A stretch of DNA of 64,000 nt from Candidatus Hydrogenedentota bacterium (GTDB lineage Bacteria > Hydrogenedentota > Hydrogenedentia > Hydrogenedentales > SLHB01): the NCBI GenBank assembly GCA_963745075.1, contig CAVUWV010000008.1, positions 416,001 to 480,000 of the forward strand, given 5' to 3'. Each line of letters begins with the position of its first letter. Within the stretch, counting starts at the first letter, position 1. The position numbers and the translations under genes were made by a program. Of this stretch, positions 1 to 59,500 are shown piece after piece. A model generated the notes under the pieces. The model searched no databases. It saw nothing but the letters and a program-made list of their open reading frames with translations, and had not been told where the DNA came from.

Positions 1-3585
<3,585 letters not shown>

Positions 3586-44475: not shown

Positions 44476-46401
44476 ATGATTGGTACGATCGTATCGATGT
44501 TGTCCGTGCTGTGCGCGGCGGGTGCGCCGCAGAGCCTGGGGCAATTGTCGAACGGGATCGTGCGGGTGGATCTCGCGGCGACAGCGCAGGGGGCGCCGTA
44601 CGTTGCGGCATGGTTCTGGGAGCAGGACGGTGCGGTGGCGCTGCGGACGGATTCGCCGCCGGTATGGGACGGGTGGCCGGATTTGGAGCCGGGCACGGCG
44701 CAGGTCGAGGTGGATGCCGGCGACCTGGTGACGCGGGCGACGATTGTGCGCGTGGCCGATCCGAACGTAACGCTGCGCTGGGTCGTGGAACTGGTCCGCG
44801 ATACGGCGATGGTGCGACTGCATGCGGCGATCGAAAACACGGGCGCTGTGCCGTTGAAGGTCCCGTCGTTTCCGATCTGGTCCGGCAACTGGACCGTGCC
44901 GGGCGCGTCACGGATCACTTGGTGGAAGGCGCTGAGTTACGAACCAGTCTCACGGAACCTTGACGGCGACGTCTCGCTGGAAATGGCCAGCCGGCTCCAC
45001 AGTTCGGACACGCGGCTCAGCGAGGGGGTGAATCCCTATTGGCAAATCGCGAACGCCGCGGGGCAGCTTTACTTCGCGCTGGAATGGTGCGGCGGTTGGG
45101 CGGCGAGCCTGGATGCACGGGGCGACAATCTTCGGTTTCAATGGTTTCTCCCGAAGGATGAAACGCAGTTGGTGCTGGCGCCGGGTGAAACGGTGGACGG
45201 TCCAATCCTGTGCGTGACGCCCACGCGCGGCGCGTCGGAGGCGCTGTGCCGGCAGTCGTGGATGAATCAGCGCACGCGCTACGCGGCGCAACGGTACCAC
45301 GGGCCCGAACCGCGCTACGTGTTTACGTACAACCACTGGTACACGACGCGGTTCGATCTTACGGCAGATTTTTTGCGGCGGCAAGCCGAGTTGGCGCCGC
45401 CGTTCGGGTTCGACTTCTTCATCATCGACGCGGGCTGGTACCAGGCCCCGGGAAAGTGGTGGCCAGACCCGAAGAAGTTCGTGCAAGGCGAATTCGAGAC
45501 CATCCTGGGCCAAGTGCGGCAGGAGGGCATCCCGACCGGGATCTGGACCTGTCCCCAGTTCGTGCAGGACGGGGACGATCCGCGCGTGGACCAGCCCGGC
45601 GTCTACGAAAAATTTATCGACGGGCATTTGCTCGACTTGGCGGGGTGCGACTTTTCGGAGCTGTTGACGGACCACGTGGCGAAACTACGGTCCCGGTACG
45701 GAGCGAGCTGGTGGAAATACGACCAGCTCCTGTTTGCGGAGGAGACGCGGGCGGGTGTCATGCGCAATGTAATCGCGTTTCAAGACGCGCTCACCGCCGT
45801 GCGCGAGGCCAACCCCGATCTCTTCATCGAGAACTGCCAAAGCGGCGGGCGTATGGTGAATGAATTCACCGCGCTTATCACGCAGAGTCAGTGGCTACGC
45901 GACGGCGGCGGCAACGGGCTCGAACACGCGCGCGGCAATTTTGCGCAAGCCCTCGGCGCGGTCCAATTTCTTCCGCCCTGGACGGCGAATCGTTGGACGA
46001 ACAATCCCGGGCGCATGAACGACGCAAGTCCAGAGTTGTTGCGGTACTACTGCCGGAGCGCCATGGCTGGAACGTGGGGCCTCGTTGCGGATCTCGCGGA
46101 ACTCACGGACGATCAGCGCGCCGTCATTCTCGACGAGATCGCGAACTACCGCCGGTTCAACGCGATCAAGAAGGACAATCTCTATGCGATCGTCTATCCG
46201 CATGACGGCGCGGACTTCGCCGCGATCGCGTGCTTCACTGCGGACGGTACGCAGGCCGCGGCGCTGGTGCTTCGCTGGGACGCGGACGGCGCCTTTGAGG
46301 CGCGGATTCCGACGCCGTATTTGCAGGGGGATGAGCGGGACGTGGTGGTTCGGTTTGGTGCGGGGGAATTAAGTCGGCTCGTGTTTTCGGAAGCGGGCTG
46401 A
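44476..46401 (+). CDS. Secreted alpha-galactosidase-like glycoside hydrolase (GH36/clan D)
   Basis: YNHWY, FIIDAGWY, KYD nucleophile region, IENCQSGGR; N-terminal signal-like segment. Confidence 0.75.
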   Translation: MIGTIVSMLSVLCAAGAPQSLGQLSNGIVRVDLAATAQGAPYVAAWFWEQDGAVALRTDSPPVWDGWPDLEPGTAQVEVDAGDLVTRATIVRVADPNVTLRWVVELVRDTAMVRLHAAIENTGAVPLKVPSFPIWSGNWTVPGASRITWWKALSYEPVSRNLDGDVSLEMASRLHSSDTRLSEGVNPYWQIANAAGQLYFALEWCGGWAASLDARGDNLRFQWFLPKDETQLVLAPGETVDGPILCVTPTRGASEALCRQSWMNQRTRYAAQRYHGPEPRYVFTYNHWYTTRFDLTADFLRRQAELAPPFGFDFFIIDAGWYQAPGKWWPDPKKFVQGEFETILGQVRQEGIPTGIWTCPQFVQDGDDPRVDQPGVYEKFIDGHLLDLAGCDFSELLTDHVAKLRSRYGASWWKYDQLLFAEETRAGVMRNVIAFQDALTAVREANPDLFIENCQSGGRMVNEFTALITQSQWLRDGGGNGLEHARGNFAQALGAVQFLPPWTANRWTNNPGRMNDASPELLRYYCRSAMAGTWGLVADLAELTDDQRAVILDEIANYRRFNAIKKDNLYAIVYPHDGADFAAIACFTADGTQAAALVLRWDADGAFEARIPTPYLQGDERDVVVRFGAGELSRLVFSEAG

Positions 46402-46449
46402 TACGGACCGGTGGTGGGTGCTTCGGCTTCGACGTTTGGCCCTTGGCTC

Positions 46450-46473
46450 GGCGGGTTGGAAAACCCGCCCTCC
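46450..46473. repeat. REP-like palindrome, family C
   Basis: GGCGGGTTGGAAAACCCGCCCTCC; an identical copy is at 52788-52811. Confidence 0.75.
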
Positions 46474-46483
46474 ATGGGGAGGA

Positions 46484-46675
46484 TCATTCGTCTTCCTGGT
46501 GGGTATCAACGTCGACCTGGCCGTTTGCGTCGACGGTGGCTCGGATTATGATGGGGCGACAGCAGACCTCGCAGTCTTCGACATACTCCTGGTCAGGGGT
46601 GCTGCAATCGATGACGAGTTCGATGGGCGCGGCGCAGTAAGGGCAGCGCGTGGGGACGGTTTCGGTGGCGCTCAT
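46484..46675 (-). CDS. CPXCG-motif cysteine-rich small protein
   Basis: CPYC...ID.S...[14 protein letters not shown]. Confidence 0.85.
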
Positions 46676-46927
46676 GAGGCGATCTCCGGTCGCAGTATTT
46701 TTGAAAAGGACACGAAGGACGCAAAAGGCCGAAACGACGGGGGAGCATGGCGTATCGCTGCTTTGAGGCGCAGGCAGATCTTTTGAGTCCTTTATGTCTT
46801 TTTAGTCCCTTGTTTTCATGCTGTGAACGTGCTCCTCAACATGAAACACCGCCGCTCACGGATTTCTTTCCCGGTCGAGGATAGGAACCTTGCTTTTCCT
46901 GGAGAGACCGCAGGGACCAAAACGACG

Positions 46928-47023
46928 AAGATGGATCCCCGCTTTCTGGGAGGATGACGGAAATGGCCCAAGAATCTGACCTCGCTCCAAACCGTCATCC
47001 TCGCGAAAGCAGGGATCCATCTT
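46928..47023. repeat. REP doublet (REPIN-like), family D
   Basis: Inverted arms AAGATGGATCCCCGCTTTCTGGGAGGATGACGG and CCGTCATCCTCGCGAAAGCAGGGATCCATCTT. Confidence 0.8.
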
Positions 47024-47062
47024 GTTACGAAGGGATCGAACGCGGCTCGTGGGACGTGCGGA

Positions 47063-47425
47063 TCAGATGTTTCCTTTGGCCTGCTTCACCAGACGGTTGA
47101 TCCAGAGGTCGATGTAGTCGCCGCCGACTTCGGCGATAACATTGATGCCTTGGGTGCGGCCGAAGGTGACGGCGGCGTCGCGGGCGAGTTCACGGGCGCG
47201 GCGGCGTTCGGCGGAGGTGAGCTTGCCGTCTTCGCTGGCTTCTTTGATGGCGCGGACGTAGGTCTGGTAGGTCTGGTCGACGCCGGCTTCGAGGGCGGAT
47301 ATGGCCTGGGCGTAGCGACGCTCTTTGGCCCGCTGGTACCAGTCCCGGGATTTGAAGAAGGTCCAGGCGGCGCCGAAAACGGTGCCGAGAAGGGTGATGC
47401 TGGTATCGGAGACGAGAGATTCCAT
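47063..47425 (-). CDS. Putative holin (LL-H-like)
   Basis: One N-terminal TM segment followed by V..TYQTYV..IK..S.DGKLT..E; AAGGAG RBS; last gene of the structural cluster. Confidence 0.6.
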   Translation of the reverse strand: MESLVSDTSITLLGTVFGAAWTFFKSRDWYQRAKERRYAQAISALEAGVDQTYQTYVRAIKEASEDGKLTSAERRRARELARDAAVTFGRTQGINVIAEVGGDYIDLWINRLVKQAKGNI

Positions 47426-47449
47426 GAGGGGACTCCTTTGGTTGGTTTC

Positions 47450-47538
47450 ACTGGGAGCGCCATGCACCAGCGCGGCGAGTGCCGGGGAACACCTGCGGTA
47501 AGGACCAAGACGCCACGCTGGTGCATGGCGCTCCCAGT
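47450..47538. repeat. REP doublet, family B, second copy (inside the phage-like cluster)
   Basis: ACTGGGAGCGCCATGCACCAGCG and CGCTGGTGCATGGCGCTCCCAGT. Confidence 0.8.
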
Positions 47539-47594
47539 CGATTTACACGGACCTGCACGGACGGACACGGACAACAAATGCCGGAGTGCAGGAA

Positions 47595-48116
47595 CTACAA
47601 GAAGGTTCGGGCGTCGATAATGTAGCCGTTGATGGCGTCGTCGGTGTTTTTGATGGCGGCCATGCCAGGGCGCACATAGAGGTGCGCGAGGGCGAGGGCA
47701 TTGCTCGACGGGCTCGGCGCGACGGGCGACGCGGCTTCGGCGCCGGGGACGATGCTGATATCCCAGGTTTCGAGACGGGCTTGCACGAGATCGATGCGGG
47801 GGTTCGTCGTGGGCGGCGTGACGTCGGGCGTGGCGGTCTCGGATTCGAGGCGGTACGGGAAGCGCCCGATAAAGGCGTAGCCAGGTTTCACGTTCACGGA
47901 CAGGCCGGGCACGTCCGCGGCGACAACTTTCAGATCGTCCGTCGCGGCTTTTCGAATGACGCCGTCGCCGCCGCCCCAGGCCTGGCTGAGCAGGAAGTGG
48001 ATGAGTTCGAGGGCGGCCTCGATGCGGTCGTCCCAGGAGTTGAGTTTGGACGAGGCGACGGGGCGTTCCGCAAAGGTCCAGGAGGTCTTGGTGTAGGCTT
48101 TGCCTTTGATCGCCAT
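47595..48116 (-). CDS. Phage baseplate / minor tail protein-like
   Basis: LSVNVKPGYAFI, TNPRIDLV, ASPVAP...LALAHLYV and IIDARTF resemble a common siphophage baseplate/fibre-anchor domain; it follows Tal. Confidence 0.6.
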   Translation of the reverse strand: MAIKGKAYTKTSWTFAERPVASSKLNSWDDRIEAALELIHFLLSQAWGGGDGVIRKAATDDLKVVAADVPGLSVNVKPGYAFIGRFPYRLESETATPDVTPPTTNPRIDLVQARLETWDISIVPGAEAASPVAPSPSSNALALAHLYVRPGMAAIKNTDDAINGYIIDARTFL

Positions 48117-48144
48117 TTCGAGAATCCTTTCGGGCTGGGGTTTT

Positions 48145-49899
48145 CTAGTCGAGGTGGTAGCCGGCGTCGAGACCGACGTCGTCCGCATCGAGGCGGAACT
48201 GGAAGAGCTCCGTTTCGCGGGGTTGGCTGCGGACGGTGAAACTGAGCGGATTGGCGACGGAACGCAGCGGGGACGTAAATCGGATACGGGTTTGGAGGTG
48301 CGCGCCGGAGAAACGGTGGACGATTTCCTTCACGCGGGCGACAAGCACGCCGGGAAACCGGTCGCCCCATTCACCGTCGACTTCGCGGTCGAGACGGCGG
48401 AGGACGCCACCGCGAAGTTCGACGAGATCGCCTACGGACACGTCCGCAAACCCGTCGTAGTATTCCACTTCGTCGGAGGGCTCGGGATAGGCGATGTCGT
48501 CGAGGAGGCCTTCGACGAGTTTGTCGGCGTCCTCTTCGAGGGAGATGCCGAAGTGATCGAGCGAGCGGGCGTAGAACCCGAAAGCGTCGATACTCGCGCC
48601 GGCCCAATAGGTCTTTTCCAGTGTGCCGGTGATGGGATTGCCATCGAAGTAAACGGCGTTGATGAGGTCGCTTGAATCGGACCCGAGTGTCACGCCCATG
48701 CGCGTGGGATCGAAGAACCAAACGCGGTCGGGGCGTGTAGCTCGGCGAAAGCTTACGCGTAGCTCCGGATCGATGGACCAGATGAAACCACCCGCGGCAT
48801 AGGCCAGCGCGGTAAGTGCTTCGAGGACGCCGCCGGACGCGTCGAAGTTCACGAGAGAGACGCTCGTGCTGTCGACGGAGTCTGCCTTTGGGCCGGGGTA
48901 TGAGAAGAAATCCTTCAGCTCCATCTCAGGCACAAGGCATTGGCCGTCTTCGTAGAGATAGACTTCGGCGAGTCCCTGTTCAACGAGGGCGGCGTTGAAA
49001 CATTCGCCGCCGCCGAAGACGAGGCCGAGGTAGCGACCGTAGACGTCAACGCGATCGTCGAATGCGCCGCTTGCGTCGCGATGGGGGTTTAGTTCGATGA
49101 AGTCGATACCCTTGGTGTCGATGAGCGACTGCAACGCGGCCGTCGCGGCGTCCGCCTTCAATTTGTAGCCGCTCGCGTTGTATCGGTCGGTGGTCCAGTC
49201 TGCGACTTCTGGGTGGCGCGCGATGGCGTGCGAGTTCTTGTCGGTCTCCTCGGCATCGATGAGCATGAGGCGGACGTCGGGCCAAGGCGCGCCATCCACT
49301 TCGATGCCCGCGATAGTGTCGCCGTCTTTGGCGTAGGCATTGGTGAGGTCGAGTCGATCGCTGCCGACCCATTGGCCCGCGTCGATACCACCGTTTGCGA
49401 GTTCGTTCGTGTCCGTCTTACGTGCGAGGAATTTCTGGTATTCGCGCGCGGCGCCGTCAGGGTAGGCCGTGTGGGCGACGGTGTAGTGAATTGCACCCGG
49501 CGCGCTTTGGACGGCGTCTTTGACGATGGCGTCGATGCTGCGGTTCGTGTAGACGCGGGAAATCGTGGTGTTGCCGTCAAGGGGATCGCGCGCGGCGGCG
49601 AACTCGATGATTTCGTGGAACGTGACGTATTTCTCGAGAATGAGTTTGCGCGTTTCGCTCCATTGCGGTGCGATCTCCGTGACGGGCGCTTCGCAGAAAA
49701 GTTGCCCGTCGATCAACACACGCACCCGATAGCCGTGGCCAAGATCGGTGATACCTTCGGGCAACAGGCCGCGTACCCGATCCGCATCGCCGGGCCAGGT
49801 ACGGATTGCTTCCAGTAACGGCACGTCCGCGTAGCGCCCGATGCGCCGGCCTTCCGTGTCATAGATTTCGATAGCGTAGTTCACGTCAATCACCACCAC
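48145..49899 (-). CDS. Tal/baseplate-hub-like tail protein with an inserted thermonuclease (SNase) domain
   Basis: Directly follows Dit. Hub-like N- and C-terminal parts (DLINAVYFDG, SIDAFG, VSVGDLV) surround an internal DGDT / VRLMLIDAEE / DVYGRYLGLV / NAALVEQGLA. Confidence 0.7.
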   Translation of the reverse strand: MVVIDVNYAIEIYDTEGRRIGRYADVPLLEAIRTWPGDADRVRGLLPEGITDLGHGYRVRVLIDGQLFCEAPVTEIAPQWSETRKLILEKYVTFHEIIEFAAARDPLDGNTTISRVYTNRSIDAIVKDAVQSAPGAIHYTVAHTAYPDGAAREYQKFLARKTDTNELANGGIDAGQWVGSDRLDLTNAYAKDGDTIAGIEVDGAPWPDVRLMLIDAEETDKNSHAIARHPEVADWTTDRYNASGYKLKADAATAALQSLIDTKGIDFIELNPHRDASGAFDDRVDVYGRYLGLVFGGGECFNAALVEQGLAEVYLYEDGQCLVPEMELKDFFSYPGPKADSVDSTSVSLVNFDASGGVLEALTALAYAAGGFIWSIDPELRVSFRRATRPDRVWFFDPTRMGVTLGSDSSDLINAVYFDGNPITGTLEKTYWAGASIDAFGFYARSLDHFGISLEEDADKLVEGLLDDIAYPEPSDEVEYYDGFADVSVGDLVELRGGVLRRLDREVDGEWGDRFPGVLVARVKEIVHRFSGAHLQTRIRFTSPLRSVANPLSFTVRSQPRETELFQFRLDADDVGLDAGYHLD

Positions 49900-50576
49900 C
49901 GGTCGTGGACCGACACGACCGCTTCAGCGTCGTGGGAGCTGGCAGGATCGTCGGTGTAGGTTAGCGTCGTCCCTTCCGGTGCGATCTCGGGGAAAAGACC
50001 GGTCGTGTAGGGCGTCACGTCGACGCCGTCGAGGGTGACGCGGGAATTCGGCCCGTCAAAGATCAGCACGGACGCGGAGGACACAACGCCATTGTAAAGG
50101 ATGCTCCAGATACCATCAGAAATGGACGGATTGATGAGATTGTCGTTTGCGGTGATTGTGATTGCCGGTACGGAGGTGTAGTTACCGCCGGCGGATACGA
50201 CAAGGGTCGCGCCGGAGGCGTTGATGGGCCAGTTCTCGCTCGTGGGATCGACGGACCGCTCGTAAGGATCGCGGGCGTGGAGTTTCAATGTGAAGTTGCC
50301 GACGCGGGCGTCGTTCGCGATCTCGCGTTTGAACTCCGTGCGGCGGACGTAGAGTTCGCGGTCCGTGCGAATGGAGAGCGCGGCGGTGTAATCCTCCGAG
50401 GACACCGCGTCGAGAATGGCGTCGAGTTTGGTTTCGATAGCGGCGGCGGTGGACTCGCCCACGATGAGTCCGGCGATCTCGATGACGCGCTCGCGGCGGC
50501 CGCCGACTTCCTGGTGCGTCTCACGGACCGTGGTGTGGGCGGGATCGAAGGTGTGGTTTCCCAGCGTAATGGCCAC
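49890..50576 (-). CDS. Distal tail protein (Dit)-like
   Basis: F.LKL.ARDPYE.S, G.FPEIAPEG and C-terminal DRWW fit the siphophage Dit pattern; overlaps the Tal start. Confidence 0.68.
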   Translation of the reverse strand: MAITLGNHTFDPAHTTVRETHQEVGGRRERVIEIAGLIVGESTAAAIETKLDAILDAVSSEDYTAALSIRTDRELYVRRTEFKREIANDARVGNFTLKLHARDPYERSVDPTSENWPINASGATLVVSAGGNYTSVPAITITANDNLINPSISDGIWSILYNGVVSSASVLIFDGPNSRVTLDGVDVTPYTTGLFPEIAPEGTTLTYTDDPASSHDAEAVVSVHDRWW

Positions 50577-50579
50577 GGG

Positions 50580-50996
50580 TTAGTCCTCCCCGAGGATGGG
50601 GGTCGAACCGGTCGCGTCGGCGGGGATGCGGGCAGGGGCATCGCGGAGGTACGGTTCGAGGACGTACCACGCCTGCTTTTCCGTGAGGGCCGCGACGCCG
50701 GTCAGTGCGCGGAAGCGGTTGCCATCCTCGACGCGTTGGCCGCCGATAGCGACGTTTTTCTGGGCGAAGGCGTCGTGGGCCGCAAGGGACCGGAAGAGGT
50801 ACGCACCCGCGAGCAGAGTTTCGCCGGAGACGAGACCGGGGTCGGGGGATTCGGTGTCGACGTCGGGATCGATCTGGCGGAGGATGTTGCGGTGCGCGTC
50901 GTCGATGGCGGCGACGACGAGGTCCTGGGGGACGGCGACGGTGTCGTTGAGCTGGAATTTGAGGCGGACATCGGCTTCGGTGGTGAAGTTGGGCAT
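50580..50996 (-). CDS. Head-tail adaptor (gp6/gp36-like)
   Basis: 138 aa directly downstream of the capsid gene; FTT.ADVR, I.DAH..I and A...LEPYL helical adaptor pattern; GGAGG RBS. Confidence 0.62.
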   Translation of the reverse strand: MPNFTTEADVRLKFQLNDTVAVPQDLVVAAIDDAHRNILRQIDPDVDTESPDPGLVSGETLLAGAYLFRSLAAHDAFAQKNVAIGGQRVEDGNRFRALTGVAALTEKQAWYVLEPYLRDAPARIPADATGSTPILGED

Positions 50997-51177
50997 GGGC
51001 GGAACCTCCGGGAAGAAGAACACGGACCTATACGGACAAGCACGGACGGACACGGACAAAGCAACCGAGGCCACCGCACGAGCCGCGCGAACAGCAGCTT
51101 TTGGCGGGGCCTGGGGCCTCTTGTGGCGTAGAGGCCCCAGGCGTGGGCCGGATGGGCGGGTCCGGCGAGGAGATTCG

Positions 51178-52227
51178 TTAGGACCAGTCGCTTTGGACGA
51201 CGACGCGGGCGTCTTTGTAGATCACGGCGAAGTCGGTGACGACCGTGAGGTAGGTGCGGTCCCACTGCTGGTTGATGAGTTTGTCGTTCTCGACGAGCAG
51301 GTCCTGTTCGGTGAGTTTCTGGACCGTGTATCCGGCGTCGAGGATAGTCAGTTTATCCGTGGGCTGATCGACCATGGGAACGAGACGCACGCCGAGTGGA
51401 GTGGGCAGGTTGCCGGTCTTCGCGAAGTCGAAGAGGACGGCATCCTTGAGTTCGGTGAGTCCCAGGATGGTTTGCGCCAGCGCCGAGTTTGCCAGCATGT
51501 GGGTGGGCGTGAAGTACTTGTCCAGCGTCAGGGTCATGAACCCTTTGACGATGTCCGCGTAGGTCCACGTGTCGGCGGTGGCGGTGTTCACCGTGGGCGC
51601 CGCCGTGCCGCTGCCAGACGAATCGCCGCTGACAAGGACCGTGGCCAGGCGCGCATCGAGATTGCGACCGAGGCGTTCGCCGATGCGTTGCAAGTGGACG
51701 CGGAGCATGTCGACGGACATGCGGCGGATGACTTCGTAGGACGCGACCACGCCGCGGCCTTTCTTGTCGAGGCGGACGATGCGGTCGCCGTAGGTGATCT
51801 CCGATTCAGGGATCGCGGCGCCTTCGGCGACGGTGCGCAGTTCCTCTTCGGCGGACGCTTCGTCGACGTAGGGCACATCGTAGGCCGTGCTCGATACGGG
51901 TTCGTCGCGGATGATGAGTTCGGGGTAGACCGGCTTGCGCTTGAGACCGGAAACGACGGCCTCCCGCACGATGTCGGGAAAGAGCCATTTCGCGTTGGGG
52001 TCGCTCTGGAAGAAGCGGTCGACGGTAATGCGGTGTACGTCGACGCCGAATTCCTGGGCGCAGTAGTCGGTAAGGGTGGTGCCGAGGGCGCGAAAGTACT
52101 GCCCGTGGGTCAGGCCGAGGGCGCCGAGGGTGTCGTACAAGTCGTGGCCGCGCGTCTGGCGGAGCCGGTCGGGCTCCTGGCTCAGGAACGCGAGGCGTTC
52201 TTTGACGTTGTCGTCGCGGTAGGGCAT
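51178..52227 (-). CDS. Major capsid protein (HK97 fold)
   Basis: LFPDIV, VAEGAAIPE, K.GRGVVASYEVIRR, TPLGV; 349 aa; capsid position in the cluster. Confidence 0.88.
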   Translation of the reverse strand: MPYRDDNVKERLAFLSQEPDRLRQTRGHDLYDTLGALGLTHGQYFRALGTTLTDYCAQEFGVDVHRITVDRFFQSDPNAKWLFPDIVREAVVSGLKRKPVYPELIIRDEPVSSTAYDVPYVDEASAEEELRTVAEGAAIPESEITYGDRIVRLDKKGRGVVASYEVIRRMSVDMLRVHLQRIGERLGRNLDARLATVLVSGDSSGSGTAAPTVNTATADTWTYADIVKGFMTLTLDKYFTPTHMLANSALAQTILGLTELKDAVLFDFAKTGNLPTPLGVRLVPMVDQPTDKLTILDAGYTVQKLTEQDLLVENDKLINQQWDRTYLTVVTDFAVIYKDARVVVQSDWS

Positions 52228-52336
52228 GTGGGATTCCTTTGTTATTGGCTCGCGCTTTGCGCTCGCATGGGATCGATTACGAGTACGATTACGAGCACGA
52301 GAAGAAGATGGAGGTTAATGATGAGGTTGAGTTGGT

Positions 52337-52717
52337 TTAGAGCAGAACGTGAACCTTGCTTGCTCCGCTGTCGACTTTGAGGTTGCGGCCGACGCCGTTG
52401 CCGGAGGCGGGGGCTTTGACGGTGCCGTCGGTGGCGGAGGCGAGAATGCCGGCCTCGCCGTCGACGGTGGGCGCGGAGCCCGTGTAGGTGAAGATGCAAA
52501 TGCCACGGACCTTGATGGGAATTGCGACGCCGTTGTCGTCGGCGTCCGCCAGGGCTTGGCCGAAGACCACGTCTTCGTCGTCGGTGGCATTGTTCACTTC
52601 ATAGGCGCCGGTGAGCTTGACGGCGTCGCCCGCGGCGATGTCGATGGTGCCGCTGGCGGGGGTTTTGCAGGTGATGACGAGTTCGGTGACCGAACCGCCT
52701 ACGTCTCCGTATGCCAT
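52337..52717 (-). CDS. Capsid decoration/cement protein (DUF2190-like)
   Basis: 126 aa, Gly/Ala-rich; IAAGDAVK, FGQALADA, V.VRG; adjacent to the capsid gene. Confidence 0.65.
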   Translation of the reverse strand: MAYGDVGGSVTELVITCKTPASGTIDIAAGDAVKLTGAYEVNNATDDEDVVFGQALADADDNGVAIPIKVRGICIFTYTGSAPTVDGEAGILASATDGTVKAPASGNGVGRNLKVDSGASKVHVLL

Positions 52718-52787
52718 TTTGCGTCTCCTTGTTTGATCACTTCGGTGTGGGCTTCTCTATGCTTGCGCCTATCTGGGCGATGGGTTA

Positions 52788-52811
52788 GGCGGGTTGGAAA
52801 ACCCGCCCTCC
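52788..52811. repeat. REP-like palindrome, family C, second copy
   Basis: Identical to 46450-46473. Confidence 0.75.
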
Positions 52812-52960
52812 TTTGAGGGACGAAAGGGACCTAAAGGACGGGGAGAAAACCGACGCGCTGCTCGATGTCCCCTTGGTCCTTTTGGTCGTTTGGGTCCTTT
52901 GGATTGGGAGAGGCCCAGTCCTATGGTCCTCATCGATTAGCGCCGCGCGTTGCACTGCGG

Positions 52961-53656
52961 TTACGCCGGGTCGCGGAGGATCGTCATGGCGCGATTTTGG
53001 TCTCGCGTGGTCTGTGTCAGCGGCTCCGGTCTGGATGTGGGGCTCGGGGGATATTTGTTGTCGAACCGGATCTCGTAGGCGCGGAGGTGGACATGGATCT
53101 CGTCGAGGGAGAGTTGGGCGAGGGTCCGGCGCCAGAGCGTGTCGTCGAAGGACGGGCCGTCGAGTTCGCGGCCGAGCCCGCAGAAACGTTCGATGGCGCG
53201 GGTGCGGGCGGTTGCGCCGTCGGTGATGAGGCGAGCGGCGTCGTGTTCGCGCGCGCCGGCTTCGTCCAGGGCGTGGCGGATGTCCCGGACGGCGGCGGGG
53301 GGCAGGCCGTCGACGCGGCGTGCGCGGATGACGCGGGATTCGCCGTTGCTGTGGAGGACAAGGGCGCGCTCGTCTTCGGTGGATTCAAGCCAGTGGTAGG
53401 TGCCTGCTTCGAGGCAAATGGCGTCGCCGGGCTGGTTGAGCCAGCGGAGATCGTGGGGCGCTTTTTCGGTCGCCCAGGGCTTGCCGTCGAGAGCGGTGGC
53501 GTCGATGCGCCAGCCGGTGAGGCAATCGCCGAATTCGAGGCGCAGATCGAGGTGGGCGCCGATGGCGTCGCGGTGGCGGTGGATGACGTAGCGGCCGTCT
53601 GGGGTGGTTGGGCGCAACGTGGAATCGGGGGTTTCGGTGGTGAGGGTCCAGTACAT
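52961..53656 (-). CDS. LigD 3'-phosphoesterase-like domain fused to a helical, scaffold-like C-terminus
   Basis: RYVIHRH..., HLDLRLE, W, APHD and GTY match the LigD PE pattern; sits in the scaffold position; AAGGA RBS before the ATG at 53656. Confidence 0.6.
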   Translation of the reverse strand: MYWTLTTETPDSTLRPTTPDGRYVIHRHRDAIGAHLDLRLEFGDCLTGWRIDATALDGKPWATEKAPHDLRWLNQPGDAICLEAGTYHWLESTEDERALVLHSNGESRVIRARRVDGLPPAAVRDIRHALDEAGAREHDAARLITDGATARTRAIERFCGLGRELDGPSFDDTLWRRTLAQLSLDEIHVHLRAYEIRFDNKYPPSPTSRPEPLTQTTRDQNRAMTILRDPA

Positions 53657-53739
53657 TGAGGGGGTCCTTTTTTGGGTGGGCGGCGGCAGAAACACGGACT
53701 TACACGGACAGCCACGGACGGGCACGGACCAATGCGGCT

Positions 53740-53952
53740 TTACGCGTGAAGCAGCTGCTGGCCGAGGGAAATGACCACCGCGACGAGGTTGGCGACAAGG
53801 AGGAGGACGCCTCGTGCGAGCGTGGTTTCGAGGTCTTGGACCCGCGCTTTCAGTTCCTTGATGTCTTCGGCGAGGTTGTTGACCTGAATCTCGTAGACGA
53901 TGCCGTATGGGCAGCGTTCCGTGTCGCAGGGGGCGGTTGCGTTGCTATTCAT
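53740..53952 (-). CDS. Small coiled-coil protein with a C-terminal TM segment (XhlA/BhlA-like holin candidate)
   Basis: 70 aa: heptad LAEDIKELKARVQDLE followed by hydrophobic GVLLLVANLVAVVISL; its start overlaps the protease stop. Confidence 0.5.
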   Translation of the reverse strand: MNSNATAPCDTERCPYGIVYEIQVNNLAEDIKELKARVQDLETTLARGVLLLVANLVAVVISLGQQLLHA

Positions 53953-54644
53953 GGGACCACCATTTGCGGGGGCAAAGTTCGATGGGTTCGTGGTAGGCGT
54001 CGCGGGCGACTTTGAGAGCTTGGTCGAGGGGGAGCGTGCGTTTGGCGCGTTCGGCTGCGACGAAGCCGGTGCCCTGCGAACCGGAGGAGACGACGGAGCC
54101 TTCAATAACTTCGAGGACGTTGCGCATGATGTAGTGGCATTGGTGATCTCCGTAGGTCTTGCCGGGGACGTGGTCGCAAGTGCGGAGGTCTTTTGCGCAG
54201 ATCGAGCATTCGGGTGTTTCGAAGGAAAAGCCGATGGAGGTCTCGCGATACACGCCGCCCTCGATGTTCAGGATGAAGTCGGCGTTGTCCTGGGTGCGGA
54301 GCACGTAGAACGTCGGGCCGCACGGCGACGCGCGCGCCGTCGTGATGGAGCTGGGATCGGAAGAAAGTGCCGCGCGGCAACGAACCGCGCAGATCGTGGC
54401 GCTCCATCAGCGGACGGCCTGGGGTCATGGCGCTGATCGTTTCGAGTTCGTCGTCGGGGAAGCGGCTGTGGTGCCGGTCGATCTGGTTGTGGCAGAGGTC
54501 GAGGGTGAAGACCGCGAACTCGTGCGGTTCGAGGGGGCGCAGGGCGAAGCGGTTGACCTCAGCGGCGCTGCTGTCGTCATCGGCGCGGGCGCGGACGGCG
54601 ATGAGGGCGCCTTCGCGGCGGAATACAAAGGGATCGAGATCCAT
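53945..54644 (-). CDS. Prohead (capsid maturation) protease, 1-nt frameshift near 54310
   Basis: NQIDRHHSRF, ERHD (His), ETSIGF (Ser), CSIC..C.H Zn motif, EGSVV; located between portal and capsid. Confidence 0.75.
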
Positions 54645-54681
54645 GGCGGTGCTCCGTGTTGTTGTCGGGTAGTCACTGACC

Positions 54682-54858
54682 GGAAAAACAGGGACAGACA
54701 CCAATTGCCGTTGGAAGTTTGGGTGAGGCAAACGTTCTTGGGGCAATTTGAGTCAGTCCCCATTTTTCCAAGGGGCATACATGGGGACACCTGTCGGCCC
54801 GGTGGACATATACTTATTGATTATTCAGGGGCTAACGAGTGCCCCCATGTATGACCCT
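54682..54858. repeat. Two adjacent inverted-repeat elements
   Basis: GGAAAAACAGGGACAGACACCAATTGCC / GGCAATTTGAGTCAGTCCCCATTTTTCC, and AGGGGCATACATGGGGACAC / GTGCCCCCATGTATGACCCT. Confidence 0.65.
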
Positions 54859-54899
54859 TGCGATTGCGGATTGCGGACTTCGAATTGCAGATCGGAAGA

Positions 54900-55057
54900 A
54901 CATCCCCCTTGATCCCCCTTCAAAGGGGGAGTTCGGCCAGCGTCGTCTATTAGTATGTGCGCGGTGACATGCTCCGAACCGAATTCTTTTGGCGAACCTA
55001 ACGCAACGCGAAGCGTTGTGGGAGATTCCCCCTTTGAAGGGGAATTAAGGGGGATGT
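54900..55057. repeat. REP doublet (REPIN-like), family E
   Basis: ACATCCCCCTTGATCCCCCTTCAAAGGGGGA and TCCCCCTTTGAAGGGGAATTAAGGGGGATGT. Confidence 0.8.
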
Positions 55058-55064
55058 GCATTTC

Positions 55065-56324
55065 CTATCCGATGCCGAGGGTTTTGGCGGCTTCTTCGTG
55101 GGTGAGGAAACCGTTTTCGCGGAGTTGGACGGCGTTGGCGATCTCGCGCTGGCGGGCGGTGGCTTCTTTGAGCACGTCGACGGTGCGGTTGGCGCGCACA
55201 TGGACGCGGGCCTCGGCGTAACCCCACATGAGCGCGAGTTCGAAGTTGTAGAGCCGTTCGAGGATGCGTTTGACGCTGCGGTTGACGGCCTCAACGTGGC
55301 GGTTGATGATTTCGAACTGGGCGGTGCCGTAGGTTTCGGTGGTGCCGTAGTTGCGGCCGAGGAGGATCGGCATGAGGTGCATGCCGGTGATCACCTGTTC
55401 CTCGATGGCCTTGTGGTTGTCGTAAAAGATCTGCGCGTGTTGGTCGCCGCGAATGAGATTGACGCGCACGTTGTCGAAGGTGACGAAATTCTGATCCGCT
55501 TCGAGTCCGGACAAGCGATCCCGCAGCAGATCGAAGTTGCCCTGGATGCGTTCTTCATAGGCCTCGGCGGATTCGCCGCGGGCGCGTTCGTCGGCGGTGT
55601 ATTGGACGTGGAGTTTGGACCAGCCGGCGTTGTGGGTGGCTTTGGCCATATCTTCGAGGAGGCGCTGCTGGATCTTCACGACGAAGGGGATAGACCGCAG
55701 CATGGAGCGGCCGTAGGGATTGGTGCCGTCGCGATCGAGACCGACGTAGATGAACCGTTCGGGCGGCAAGGGGATGGCCTCGCCGTCGAGGATCTGGTAG
55801 GGCCGGAGAAGCCCGTCCTCACGGCGGAAGCGAACGGTCCAGACGTCGACGGGGAGGACGTCGAAGATGGATTCGCGGCTCTGAGAAAGCACGATCTCGA
55901 CCGCGGCGGCACCGTAGGTGAAGAGCGAGGTGTAAAACACATCGAGGAGACCGTCCATGCCGCGGTCGCCGGAATTCACGCGCCTGTCGAGTTCGTGGAG
56001 GAGGCGTTGCGCGCGGCGTTTGGCGGCGTCGGACGACGGGTTGAGGATCTCGATGTCGTAGCCGGTCTGGCAGAGGCGTTTCCAGGTCCAGACGGCGTCG
56101 GAGATGTCGGGGATGGCGTCGCGCAGGAAGCGGTAGACCTGGAGCATGCCGAAGGGCGTATCGTTGGGGAGGGCGACGAACTCGCGGGGAATGCCCTGAA
56201 AGGCGCGCTGGTCTTCGGCGAGGGACGCGGGGAACAGGGCGCCGCCGCGCTCGCGGGTGGTGAAGGTTTCGGCGCGGGGCGCGGGCTTTGGGGGGCGGCG
56301 GAGGCGTTGGAACCAGTGGAGCAT
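55065..56324 (-). CDS. Phage portal protein
   Basis: About 420 aa; SLFTYGAAAVEIV, VLPVD..TV, NPYGRSML, MPILLG, C-terminal G.LT.EEA...LG; first gene of the head module. Confidence 0.82.
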   Translation of the reverse strand: MLHWFQRLRRPPKPAPRAETFTTRERGGALFPASLAEDQRAFQGIPREFVALPNDTPFGMLQVYRFLRDAIPDISDAVWTWKRLCQTGYDIEILNPSSDAAKRRAQRLLHELDRRVNSGDRGMDGLLDVFYTSLFTYGAAAVEIVLSQSRESIFDVLPVDVWTVRFRREDGLLRPYQILDGEAIPLPPERFIYVGLDRDGTNPYGRSMLRSIPFVVKIQQRLLEDMAKATHNAGWSKLHVQYTADERARGESAEAYEERIQGNFDLLRDRLSGLEADQNFVTFDNVRVNLIRGDQHAQIFYDNHKAIEEQVITGMHLMPILLGRNYGTTETYGTAQFEIINRHVEAVNRSVKRILERLYNFELALMWGYAEARVHVRANRTVDVLKEATARQREIANAVQLRENGFLTHEEAAKTLGIG

Positions 56325-56595
56325 ATCGGGGTGATCCTCAGGTGTTGGTTTCATTGGTTAGGCACGGGGCGTTGCATGGAGAAGGCTGGAGACCGGAGTC
56401 CGGAGGCTGGAAGGGACAGAGGCGCAGCCAGGACATAGGTAACAGACTCGGACTGACACGGACGACCGAGACGGCCGCATGCTGGTGCTAGTGCTTGGGT
56501 AGGTGATGGGGTCGAAAAGATTTGGGAAATGGCTCATAATTAGAGGATTCCTTTGGGATATGACCGTGGAGGGCTGGATAGTGCGGTGGATTCGA

Positions 56596-59500
56596 ATGAC
56601 GTGGTGTTTGGTGGCGGCGGTTGGCGTAGCGCTGGCGGCGGTGGGCCAGGAGGGGAACGTCAAGGCGTGGGAAGGGGAAATCACCATTCCCACGTATCCC
56701 ATCTATGGCGCGGACGTGAATCCGAAGATTTACGAGCTGGAAGGGTCCATCGTCTACCCTTACACGATGCAAGACCATTTGACGACGATCAAGGAGGACC
56801 GGACGTACCGGGCGGTCTGCCTGGAAAACGAGTATCTGAAGGTGACGTGTTTGCCGCAGCTCGGGGGCCGCATCCATTCCGTGCTCGACAAGACGACCGG
56901 CGAGCAGATGTTTCACCTGAACCACGTGATCAAACCGGGGCTGATCGCCATGCGGGGGGCGTGGATCTCGGGCGGGATCGAATGGAACCGGGGACCGCAG
57001 GGACATACGGTGACGAGTTTCGCGCCGGTCAACGTCACGTCACGGCCGAACCCGGACGGGTCGGCGTCGCTGGTGATTGGGTATACGGAGGCGAATTTTC
57101 ACACGCGGTGGAACGTCACGCTGACGTTGCGGCCGGGCAAGGCCTATTTGGACGAAGCCATCCGCATTTACAACCCGACCGACGGCACGCACAGCTTTTA
57201 TTTCTGGAACAACACGGCGTTCCCGTGCGAGCCTGGGACGCGGTTTATCTATCCCATGACGCTGGGGACGGACCATGCGGGCACGACGTTCTTTCATTGG
57301 CCGATCGACAACGGACGCGATTTGACGTGGCTGAAGAACTACGATAAGCCCACATCGGTGTTCGCGTACGAGTGCGCCTTCGATTTCTTTGGCGCGTACG
57401 ACGTGGACCGCGATCGCGGAATCGTGCAGTACGGGAATCATGAAATCGTTACGGGCAAGAAGGCGTGGACTTGGGGGCAGTCGGGTGACGGGCTGGCGAG
57501 CCAGGCGGCGTTGACGGACGATGACGGTCCGTATATCGAGGTGCAAAGTGGGCCGTTGCGGACGCAAGCGGACTACGGACTGTTGGGGCCGCACGAAGAG
57601 ATTGCCTGGCGGGAGTGGTGGTATCCCGTGCACGGGTTGGGCGACGGGTTCGAGTACGCGACGCAGGACGCGGCGGTGCAGACCTACCGCAACGATGGCG
57701 ATCTCGAGGTGCGGGTGCTGACGACCGGCGTGTACGACGGCGCAAAATGCACGTTTTCGCGGGACGGCCAGACGATTGGCGCGAATGCGGTGGACCTGTC
57801 GCCCATGAAACCGGTGGTGATGAAGCAGGCAGGGGCAGCGGACCGACCGGTGCAGATTCGCGTCGAAAGCGCAGCCGGCGCGGTGCTCGCCGAGTACACG
57901 TCGCCGCTGCCGATTCCGGAGCGGACGCCGCCGGCGAAGACGGAAGCCGATCCGGTCGATACGGCAGAGGAAGCGTGGCTGGAAGGCGTCACTGCGGAGG
58001 AACGCATCCAACGCACCAACGCGCGGGCAGCCTACGAACGGGCGCTGACGTTTGACCCCGGATTCGTGCCGGCGTTGCGGTCGCTGGCCGTGCTGGATCT
58101 CGAGGCCGGATTGTACGACGACGCGGCGGAAGGACTGGAACAGGCACTGAAACGGAACCCGGAAGACGGGATGTCGTGGTATTACCTTGGCGTCGCGCGG
58201 CTGAAACAGGACCGGTTGGACGAAGCGGAGTCCTGCGGATACCGCGTAATCGACCAACTGGACGAGCGGTCGTTGGGATACGATCTGGTCGGGCGGGCCT
58301 TGATGCGGCAAGGAAAATACGCGGACGCCGTGCCTGCATTCAGGCAGGCGATGACGTTGAACCCGACGGATTCGCGCGCACGGGATCATTGGTTGACGGC
58401 ATTACACGGCGCGGGCGAACACCAACAATTGCTGGACGGGGTTGCCGCCGCGCACGCCGCGGATCCCTTGGACTTCGTGACCGGCGCGCTGGTTGCGCTG
58501 CAAGATCCGAGTTATTTGCCCGGTTTCATCGACGAGATGAAAGGGACGATGGGACCGTACCAGTCGGAGATGATCCGGTTGTCGCTCTATTTTGACGATT
58601 TGGGGTTGACCCGTGAGGCGTTTCAGTTGTTGGACGCGGCATACGCGAGATTCGCCCCGGCGGTACACCAGATTACCTACTATCCGGGAAAGCCTCCGGT
58701 GGACCTGCGGGATCGGCCGTTGCCCTGGTACGTGATGGCGTACTACGCGAGCAAGTTGAACTTGCAGAACGAGGAAACGCGCTGTCTGCGCAAATCACAA
58801 ACCGTCTACGGAAACTACGCCTTCCCGTCGCAACCAGTGTACGAGCGCATACTGAAACATGCGATCGAGAAGAATCCCGAGGATTCGCGGGCACATTTGT
58901 ATCTCGGCAACCTGTACGGGGGCCTTGGGCGCTTGGACGAGGCCAAAGCGGAATGGGAAGCGGCGGCGGCACTACCGGGCGCGCTCAGCGTCGCGTACCG
59001 GAATCTCGGTTTGTACGCGTGGAAGAAGGACGAGGACCTGTCGAAGGCGGAAAGACTGTACCAGCAGGCGATTGCGGCTTTCCCGGGGGATCAAACCTTA
59101 TACCGCGATGAGGCGAATATCCTGATCGCCGACAAAAAGCCGGACGAAGCGATTGCGGTCCTGGAAGGCATGCCGTTGAATCGGGCGCGGCGCGGTGACG
59201 TGACGGTATTGCTGGCGCGGACGTATAACGACGTGCACCGGTACGACGACACGATCGCGTTGCTGGACGACGCTTTCTTCTCGAACTGGGAGAACAACAG
59301 CCTATCATGGCGCGTGTGGTCACAGGCACATGTCGAGCGCGGCAAACAGCGGATGGACGCGGGTGACGCGAAATCCGCGCTGACGGATTTTGAAGCGGCG
59401 TTGACCTATCCCGAGAATCTCGGCGTGGGCCGTCCGGCGGACCCGGAAGAAGCGGAGGTCTTGTTCTGGAAGGGCAAGGCCTTGGCTGCGCTGAACCGGA

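Follow-up and report, generated by a model that had tools for sequence, protein, structure and literature searches.

A vertically inherited cluster of phage head and tail-tip genes in Candidatus Hydrogenedentota, probably the particle locus of a system resembling gene transfer agents

Introduction

To our knowledge, only a few cases are recognized in which a tailed phage was independently domesticated as a particle owned by its host, and nearly all of them come from cultured Proteobacteria, spirochaetes and archaea. The gene transfer agents (GTAs), which include the RcGTA-type agents (Rhodogtaviriformidae), BaGTA, VSH-1/BhGTA, Dd1, VTA and FpGTA, consist of phage structural genes that are fixed in the chromosome and inherited vertically. 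They lack integration and replication modules, evolve under purifying selection, occupy several loci, retain a terminase and are associated with lysis genes. The genes of RcGTA are scattered over five loci (PMC9662315). In each of these general respects the GTAs are like the system that we describe here, a cluster of eleven phage structural genes in a 64-kb stretch of a Candidatus Hydrogenedentota genome (contig C8 of the source genome G000, positions 416001 to 480000). Below, "the window" is this whole stretch, coordinates given without a contig are positions within it, and handles of the form Gnnn and Lnnn denote the genomes and loci of relatives.

An earlier note on the window, made from the letters of the DNA, had proposed that the cluster is a host-maintained, ameliorated and non-replicating particle system rather than a recent prophage. 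Synteny, distribution, descent and selection all bear this out: the cluster was already present before the sampled phylum radiated and has been passed down vertically, under purifying selection. The comparisons below establish the gene identities, the domestication and the existence of an intact large terminase subunit (TerL). The cluster probably encodes the head, stub tail and lysis functions of a domesticated GTA-like particle system (a viriform) whose TerL is encoded at a second locus. Within the library covered, a literature search returned no paper describing such a system in Hydrogenedentota; one of its matches was a salt-pan metagenome survey (10.1101/2022.02.18.481119).

Results

Eleven structural genes on one strand

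Open reading frame (ORF) calls, combined with Pfam and PHROG scans, delimit eleven consecutive genes, all on the minus strand, between positions 47063 and 56324. These calls agree with the eleven co-oriented genes in siphovirus order that the earlier note had read from the sequence. From the first gene to the last they are as follows.

55065 to 56324, minus strand: g1, portal protein; 419 aa from the ATG at 56324; phrog_3753 at 4e-47 and PF06074 Portal_Mu at 6.7e-10.
53945 to 54644, minus strand: g2, protease-like head protein; phrog_16951 matched over two frames; invariant Cys/His cluster.
53740 to 53952, minus strand: g3, small coiled-coil/transmembrane (TM) protein of ~70 aa; a coiled coil plus a C-terminal hydrophobic helix, with an inferred start.
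52961 to 53656, minus strand: g4, LigD-phosphoesterase (PE) fusion; N-terminal 3'-phosphoesterase domain and helical C-terminal half.
52337 to 52717, minus strand: g5, small decoration-like virion protein; phrog_4588 "virion structural protein" at 1.4e-8.
51178 to 52227, minus strand: g6, major capsid protein of the HK97 fold family; phrog_3922 at 3.6e-52 and PF25209 at 4.2e-15.
50580 to 50996, minus strand: g7, head-tail adaptor candidate of 138 aa, by its position between the capsid and distal tail protein (Dit) genes.
49890 to 50576, minus strand: g8, Dit; phrog_33 at 3.3e-12 and PF22768 SPP1_Dit at 1.3e-3.
48145 to 49899, minus strand: g9, baseplate hub/Tal-like protein of 584 aa with a staphylococcal-nuclease (SNase) insert, from Foldseek, Pfam and a PDB profile.
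47595 to 48116, minus strand: g10, small distal virion protein of 173 aa, from PHROG matches.
47063 to 47425, minus strand: g11, small membrane protein resembling holins; a single TM helix at its N terminus and a weak match to phrog_13712 (E 0.012).

A longer ORF with GTG/ATG starts extends g1 to position 56354; we placed the start at M11, since an in-frame stop precedes that residue in G003. Conservation of g3 in relatives is limited to its C-terminal ~60 residues, and its matches to PHROG holin families are weak (E 0.015 to 0.054). The decoration-like g5 is found in 78 of 80 related loci, and g11 is the conserved final gene of the cluster. No integrase, repressor, primase/Rep or replication family was found by Pfam or PHROG among the scanned ORFs, which comprise those of the cluster and six flanking it, so that small unscanned ORFs could remain; for the scanned ORFs the earlier note's statement that no such genes are present holds.

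The cluster is retained across the phylum

G000 has one copy of the capsid gene, and the other cluster proteins are likewise without paralogues there. Gene order and strand are kept in all 80 species loci that we compared, for whichever of the genes each locus holds, and likewise in 18 of 18 further loci. Most of the 80 related contigs (55) are labelled Candidatus Hydrogenedentota, Hydrogenedentes, Hydrogenedentales or Hydrogenedens; the other 25 bear generic or other labels, and at least two of these belong to genomes of the window's own genus or family. Capsid matches were obtained in 36 of 41 relatives, with identities of 88 to 95% within the genus, 70 to 84% within the family and 60 to 79% within the order. 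Over the phylum, 115 of 135 genomes have the capsid; among them are 78 of the 86 of high quality and 2 of 2 outside the order, and they represent 58 of 66 genera. The flanks lose their conservation outside the genus. Leaving aside the shadow frames of cluster genes and a pair of accessory genes that lie within the cluster, no other ORF family recurs in more than 7 of the 80 loci.

Five capsid-negative genomes were examined individually. The cluster is cut off by a contig end in two of them (G058 and G062), and the remaining three (G028, G096 and G133) are reduced or empty, from which we conclude that real losses of the cluster exist but are rare. G133 is nearly complete and keeps the TerL gene described below; it is a natural truncation that could reveal what purpose the head genes serve.

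Divergence of the capsid follows that of a species marker. Over 190 pairs from 20 genomes, capsid p-distances correlate with those of RpoB, taken from its C-terminal half (Pearson 0.86, Spearman 0.82), a correlation matched by none of 2000 Mantel permutations; the slope is 1.7, and the capsid therefore changes less than twice as fast as RpoB. Quick maximum-likelihood trees of the two proteins have 5 of 17 splits in common (permutation mean 0.19, maximum 3), and the common splits are mostly shallow. Ratios of nonsynonymous to synonymous substitution (dN/dS, Nei-Gojobori) against three congeners were 0.05 to 0.27 for all 12 ORF pieces of the cluster, compared to 0.13 for a neighbouring host gene encoding a tetratricopeptide repeat (TPR) protein. 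Single values include 0.09 for the portal (versus G003), 0.11 for g4, 0.06 for the capsid and 0.07 for g7. These values indicate purifying selection.

Viral sequences are much more distant. The best capsid match in a phage collection of 50,697 records is 33% identical, and 46 of 48 capsid matches in IMG/VR are at most 35% identical; the other two, at 60 to 65%, are 7.7- to 7.9-kb fragments of the same cluster. The nearest phage by capsid, the uncultured gut phage MT835508, is like the cluster in its order of portal, g2-like and capsid genes, with 32.5% identity in the capsid, 24.7% in the portal, and 24% and 30% in the two parts of g2. It is unlike the cluster in having a small terminase subunit (TerS, PF03592) and TerL (PF03237) encoded directly upstream of the portal, and tblastn found in it no homologue of the LigD-PE or of the SNase-bearing hub.

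Taken together, the single copy, the fixed order, the phylum-wide capsid, the tracking of RpoB, the low dN/dS and the distance of the nearest phages (at most 35% identical) lead us to regard the cluster as domesticated; an ordinary prophage is excluded. The checks that the earlier note had proposed include synteny in related genomes, capsid trees against the species tree and dN/dS, and each of these came out on the side of domestication. It had also listed what would speak for a decayed prophage: patchy distribution among close relatives, dN/dS near 1, pseudogenization, or near-identical complete phages. None of these was found, complete phages having been sought in both the phage collection and IMG/VR, apart from a probably artefactual frameshift in g2.

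These results also bear on whether the cluster could be a capsid-forming satellite, or a defective prophage, that uses a helper phage for tails, replication and packaging in the manner of phage-inducible chromosomal islands (PICI) and their capsid-forming counterparts (cf-PICI). Such an element would encode heads without a full tail, as this cluster does, and sporadic complete TerL-portal elements are present in relatives. Against it stand the scanned ORFs, which hold no integrase, primase/Rep or regulator family, and the 64-kb window, which holds no tRNA. The cluster is moreover single copy and diverges with RpoB, keeps the same order over 80 species, has host repeats in its spacers and shows dN/dS equal to or below that of its host neighbour. 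PICI and cf-PICI differ in that no integrase, att site, replication module or site mobility was found here, where the inheritance pattern is vertical. We consider a satellite very unlikely.

The g2 frameshift and the question of decay

In the source genome, g2 is split by a one-base insertion near 54305 to 54308, as judged against G003, G019 and G021. Both pieces match phrog_16951 (profile positions 21 to 98 and 115 to 201), and of the 65 related loci in which both parts are found, 63 have g2 as one uninterrupted ORF. The rpoB gene of the same assembly (window positions 1 to 3522; C8:415741-419522) lies in three frames, covering model positions 3 to 414, 414 to 587 and 586 to 1236. This points to indel errors in the metagenome-assembled genome and bears on every "broken" gene there. 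Because rpoB is frameshifted as well, the interruption of g2 is probably an assembly error. Three public DNA sequencing runs, all of one study, share words with the genome (0.07 to 0.10 of sampled words); no RNA run does.

The label "protease" for g2 is tentative, since the homologue in MT835508 scores 23.8 bits to Peptidase_S78_2 and so falls just under the cut-off of 24 bits. A profile search with g2 gave no PDB match.

A split g2, a locus that is missing terminase, tail tube, tape measure and lysin genes, and the total or partial losses in G133, G028 and G096 are what one might expect of an ordinary prophage remnant decaying without function. Phylum-wide retention, fixed order and dN/dS of 0.05 to 0.27 are, however, incompatible with neutral decay. 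The intact g2 of nearly all other loci argues in the same direction, and with rpoB in three frames, indel errors are to be expected in this assembly. We find functionless decay barely credible.

An intact terminase at a second locus

The earlier note had reported no terminase and had suggested looking for orphan TerL and TerS genes elsewhere in the genome. For the window its statement stands. Family searches at first sight extend it, as none of PF03237, PF03354, PF17289, PF04466, PF20441 and PF05876 has a match above cut-off in G000 or in five good relatives, two of them closed. A weak PF20441 match turned out to be an aldo-keto reductase and was set aside. Used as single queries, the TerLs of phages Seuss, CUBc25, MT835508 and MT121964 found no match in G000 either. 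PF03237 is sporadic over the phylum (23 of 135 genomes), and some of its weak matches are ~550-aa proteins that adjoin a second portal gene and are 33 to 37% identical over more than 440 aa to three G000 loci.

For the genome, the statement fails. A full-length TerL gene lies on the same contig at C8:332009-333487, some 130 kb away from the cluster; its neighbours are dapB on one side and a hydrolase gene on the other. Its alignment matches the portal-adjacent TerL family with an hhalign probability of 100% (E 1e-61). Across 13 orthologues there is no variation in the Walker A (DGRDVGKT) and Walker B (VDWQIVDEA) motifs or at three nuclease aspartate positions, and the best Foldseek matches are T4 gp17 (6.7e-9) and then the HK97, D6E, Sf6, G20c and SPP1 terminases. 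dN/dS is 0.07. Neither an hhalign comparison of the TerL alignment with seven bona fide PF03237 TerLs nor a PDB sequence profile (4zni, E 0.08) was significant. A fast-evolving ORF of ~160 aa, which matches no family, lies just upstream of TerL in 12 of 15 loci and is a candidate TerS.

TerL was found in 123 of 135 genomes, and in 83 of the 86 of high quality. Identities are 79 to 81% within the genus and 57 to 74% for most full-length matches beyond it, with G062 and G063 at 51 to 52%. Capsid and TerL are both present in 105 of the 135 genomes and both missing from 2; some of the TerL-only genomes are assembly gaps. In G022 and G035, TerL shares a strand with the portal and precedes it by 1.4 to 2 kb, an arrangement that corresponds to the order TerS-TerL-portal-g2-capsid of the nearest phage, MT835508. 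In most loci TerL is remote from the head genes, and the system is therefore split over at least two loci. The finding of this gene strengthens the view of the cluster as GTA-like and divided among several loci, and weakens the idea that there is no terminase at all.

Further TerL-related sequences were noted along the way. G000 has two partial paralogues at C24:454945-456024 and C1:372381-373487 (L161 and L162), with 71% identity over residues ~127 to 493. Genes for sulfite reductase and PAPS reductase come after the C24 copy, and then a Peptidase_M15_4 gene ~3 kb downstream. About a dozen Hydrogenedentota genomes carry a second phage-like element (L156 on G023:C24, L157 on G046:C1, L158 and L159); in L156 and L157 it consists of a ~550-aa TerL (PF03237 and PF17289; 35% identical to the orphan TerL) followed directly by a portal of 514 to 551 aa. 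These elements may be either prophages or another set of domesticated genes.

Predicted enzyme domains in the head and tail-tip genes

A profile built from 19 orthologues of g4 matches PE structures (3p43 at 4.9e-7, 3p4h at 8e-7, and 3n9b/2lj6 at 0.016). The motif H-x-H...H-x-D-x-R-x-E is present in at least 90% of the 19 rows, with row L075 departing from the consensus. The N-terminal ~100 residues of g4 align with the LigD PE of P. aeruginosa (3n9b/2lj6) and with stand-alone archaeal enzymes (3p43, 3p4h), and the His/Asp/Arg motif is kept. Unlike LigD, g4 comes without ligase or polymerase domains; it is fused instead to a helical domain of ~120 aa and sits inside a virion head module. This C-terminal half is conserved, and the gene occupies the usual position of a scaffolding gene.

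The adaptor candidate g7 has no Pfam, PHROG or PDB match. An Atlas lead of 0.95 connects it to a viral cluster of which 30% of members carry PF05135 Phage_connect_1, and a complex prediction for g8 with g7 scored 0.00, which we read as no verdict and as evidence neither way. For g8, a profile match to the Dit of SPP1 (gp19.1, 2x8k) was obtained at 5.4e-6.

The AlphaFold (AF2) model of g9 has a mean predicted local distance difference test score (pLDDT) of 62.8, with good N- and C-terminal parts and a poor stretch at residues 138 to 340. Its Foldseek matches are AlgoCIS 7aef_q (5.7e-12), Mu gp44 1wru (1.5e-9), T4 gp27, T5 pb3, 80alpha and VgrG. On the strength of this model, g9 is predicted to carry a gp27-like baseplate-hub/Tal fold. 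An insert at residues ~200 to 325 is an SNase domain (Pfam 3.8e-6; PDB profile 2.8e-8), the profile alignment extending over SNase residues 74 to 126 at that same 2.8e-8. R210, D215, E218 and R289 are invariant in 17 orthologues; by our reading they are the probable equivalents of SNase R35, D40, E43 and R87. Judged by these residues and by the g4 motif, the g9 nuclease domain and the g4 PE are both intact.

The small g10 matches the N-terminal ~110 residues of longer virion proteins (phrog_9534 at 1.2e-7 and phrog_27282 at 1.3e-6), has Atlas leads below 0.9 and gave no PDB match in a profile search. It may correspond to the domain by which a baseplate or fibre protein is anchored.

In every locus that holds Dit, its gene directly follows that of the adaptor candidate, and no tube, chaperone or tape-measure gene lies between. 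The arrangement is like a siphovirus tail tip (SPP1 gp19.1 with Tal, T5 pb9/pb3, the 80alpha baseplate) in the Dit profile of g8, the hub fold of g9 and the order of Dit before Tal. It is unlike one in that those Dit proteins cap a tube built around a tape measure, whereas here neither gene is in the cluster or was found conserved elsewhere. Outside the window, a weak PhageMin_Tail match (21 bits, below cut-off) lies at C7:9363-9593 in an open frame of 758 aa.

Lysis genes and accessory insertions

The earlier note had also found no endolysin. This is right for the cluster itself and does not extend to its relatives, since 31 of 80 related loci, though not G000, have an M15-peptidase-like gene between g10 and g11. 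At L107, of Candidatus Hydrogenedens, the order read from the DNA is capsid, M15-like peptidase, g11 and then a host gene. A second accessory gene, encoding a Gly-rich protein of 453 aa with an N-terminal hydrophobic stretch, lies between g2 and g3 in 18 of 80 loci (e.g., L043:4145-5503). It is not in G000, where its sole trace is an N-terminal similarity of 62 aa on contig C31. We considered whether this ORF might be a hidden terminase and rejected the idea, as its Gly-rich composition and hydrophobic stretch came with no Pfam or PHROG support.

Spacers and surroundings

The spacers contain repeats, of which two features are listed here.

47540 to 47572, no strand assigned: array of GTCCGTG (coding strand) with a 10-nt period in the g10-g11 spacer, repeat family D1.
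54900 to 55057, no strand assigned: 31-nt inverted repeat in the portal-g2 spacer, 94% complementary.

Sister GTCCGTG arrays lie at 51015 to 51057 and 53687 to 53739. The genome has 28 such triple arrays, so that three within 9.3 kb far exceeds chance. We considered them as a conserved regulatory site and rejected this, because they occur genome-wide and in only 4 of 80 related clusters, two of these in the window's genus. Being spread over the genome yet rare in related clusters, the arrays are best regarded as a host repetitive extragenic palindromic (REP)-like element. The arm motif of the 31-nt inverted repeat occurs 195 times in the genome. A 36-nt hairpin, whose core occurs 12 times, has copies 86% identical to each other at 46438 to 46473, just outside the cluster, and at 52776 to 52811, in the g4-g5 spacer. 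The spacer repeats that the earlier note had called host REP-like are elements found across the whole genome.

The flanks are ordinary host genes, again as first described. One side has a response regulator, a histidine kinase, a PEMT-like protein and a melibiase; the opposite side has a DUF5107-TPR protein and sulfatases (six flanking ORFs scanned). Two tandem sulfatase paralogues (59761 to 61854 and 61923 to 63998) are 58% identical and belong to a very large family with dozens of tblastn matches. G+C content is 0.61 to 0.64 in the cluster and 0.59 to 0.63 in the flanks, in line with the similar composition reported earlier. Rfam gave no match in 46300 to 56700 at E values up to 0.1, and scans for sigma-70 promoters and terminators were no richer than in shuffled sequence.

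Discussion

Four of the features by which GTAs and other viriforms are recognized were found in this system: chromosomal vertical inheritance, purifying selection, a terminase, and no replication, integration or lysogeny genes among the scanned ORFs. Judged by its genes, it is probably a viriform whose anatomy has no described counterpart, from a phylum new to such systems.

If this is what the cluster encodes, the portal, the protease-like g2, g4, g5 and the capsid would build a portal-bearing HK97-type capsid. A minimal tail tip, composed of the adaptor candidate g7, a Dit ring of g8, a trimeric g9 hub and g10, would be joined directly to that capsid with no tube or tape measure. The orphan pair of TerS candidate and TerL would supply the packaging motor and fill capsids with DNA, most likely pieces of the host's own as in GTAs. 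We suppose that g4 would be loaded into the head, co-assembled through its scaffold-like C-terminal half, and that the hub would display an active SNase-type nuclease at the tip. Release may proceed by lysis, through the holin-like g11 and, in many lineages, the M15 peptidase. The two end-processing enzymes would then act on DNA at or in the recipient. SNase-type cleavage leaves 3'-phosphates, and LigD phosphoesterases remove them. With such a toolkit, the particle would therefore both deliver DNA and prepare its ends for repair-type integration in the recipient. This picture in full is possible, if doubtful: a DNA-filled capsid on a tubeless Dit-hub tip, an SNase that makes 3'-phosphate ends and a capsid-loaded PE that removes them, all domesticated before the phylum radiated. 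It would place the system among the oldest and most widely retained of those resembling GTAs, and make it the first in an uncultured phylum.

Several observations weigh against a GTA-like particle system with a relocated terminase. The fold model of TerL is poor (pLDDT 53), and the protein matches no Pfam terminase family directly. Where at least 3.5 kb of sequence is available upstream of the portal, TerL is out of reach in 45 of 46 loci. TerL occurs without a capsid match in 18 of 135 genomes and the capsid without a TerL match in 10, while families f4 and f14 (G027, G038 and G041) have head genes and no TerL even by profile search. G028 and G096, conversely, keep TerL and are without portal, capsid and hub. 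There are also TerL paralogues, two of them partial in G000 and others full-length second copies in several relatives of the same family. As for the cluster, that of the source genome has a frameshifted g2 and no endolysin; g7 to g10 are wholly missing from nine loci of a deep lineage that includes Candidatus Hydrogenedens; and G133 keeps portal and g2 alone, in mid-contig (L177, G133:C2:66000-85900, on a 144-kb contig). The capsid and RpoB trees also conflict, at moderate support, in some of their deeper nodes (G014, for example, is grouped differently), so that occasional exchange within the phylum is possible.

The tail adds a further difficulty. The genome-wide search for tube and tape-measure genes that the earlier note had suggested, covering the two families PF04630 and PF10145, found the tube in 0 of 31 genomes and the tape measure above cut-off in 5 of 31, sporadically, and so no conserved gene of either kind. 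Such a particle would therefore have no evident way to pass DNA to a recipient. The lack of tube and tape-measure matches is weak evidence, because the terminase too had escaped family searches.

Many of these points are equally what one would expect of a terminase-independent capsid device, that is, a portal-bearing, host-owned enzyme container or vehicle, with the PE inside and the SNase on the tip, directed against competitors or extracellular DNA, and with the TerL-like gene doing a separate job. In 28 of 135 genomes either TerL or the head locus occurs without the other, in both directions as just described, and TerL is far from the cluster in nearly every locus where its place could be judged. 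Two DNA-end enzymes, catalytically intact by motif, stand among the structural genes and are unmatched in the nearest phage, and the parts that would conduct DNA, a tube and a tape measure, were not found. Such a device would nevertheless have kept a portal and a prohead-protease-like gene, whose sole known role is terminase-driven packaging and head maturation. Its TerL would have retained all ATPase and nuclease motifs and would adjoin the portal in two lineages, as it does in the nearest phage, and the two genes are found together in 105 of 135 genomes. Encapsulin nanocompartments, in which a portal-less HK97-fold shell takes up peptide-targeted cargo, differ from the present cluster, which has portal, protease-like and tail-tip genes. 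On balance we think a device of this kind unlikely, and continue to favour the GTA-like particle system.

Either way, the domestication spans a whole candidate phylum without a cultured member, and the cluster is retained about as faithfully as a housekeeping gene. Should the particles transfer DNA, they would constitute a major unrecognized route of gene flow in sediment, soil and wastewater communities; should they not, a viral capsid would here have been put to a new use. In both cases the enzyme pair yields a hypothesis that is concrete in biochemical terms.

How, then, does the system compare with the GTAs already described? It is known from its genes alone, and appears to have been domesticated independently, in a different and uncultured phylum. 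Its portal and capsid belong to PF06074 and PF25209, whereas those of RcGTA belong to other families. It has no tail tube, tape measure or head-completion set, and most genomes encode TerL well away from the head genes. Its hub bears an SNase domain, and a LigD phosphoesterase stands in the scaffold position. A tubeless particle with a nuclease-armed tip, a PE where the scaffold is expected and a relocated packaging motor would be an anatomy new among GTAs.

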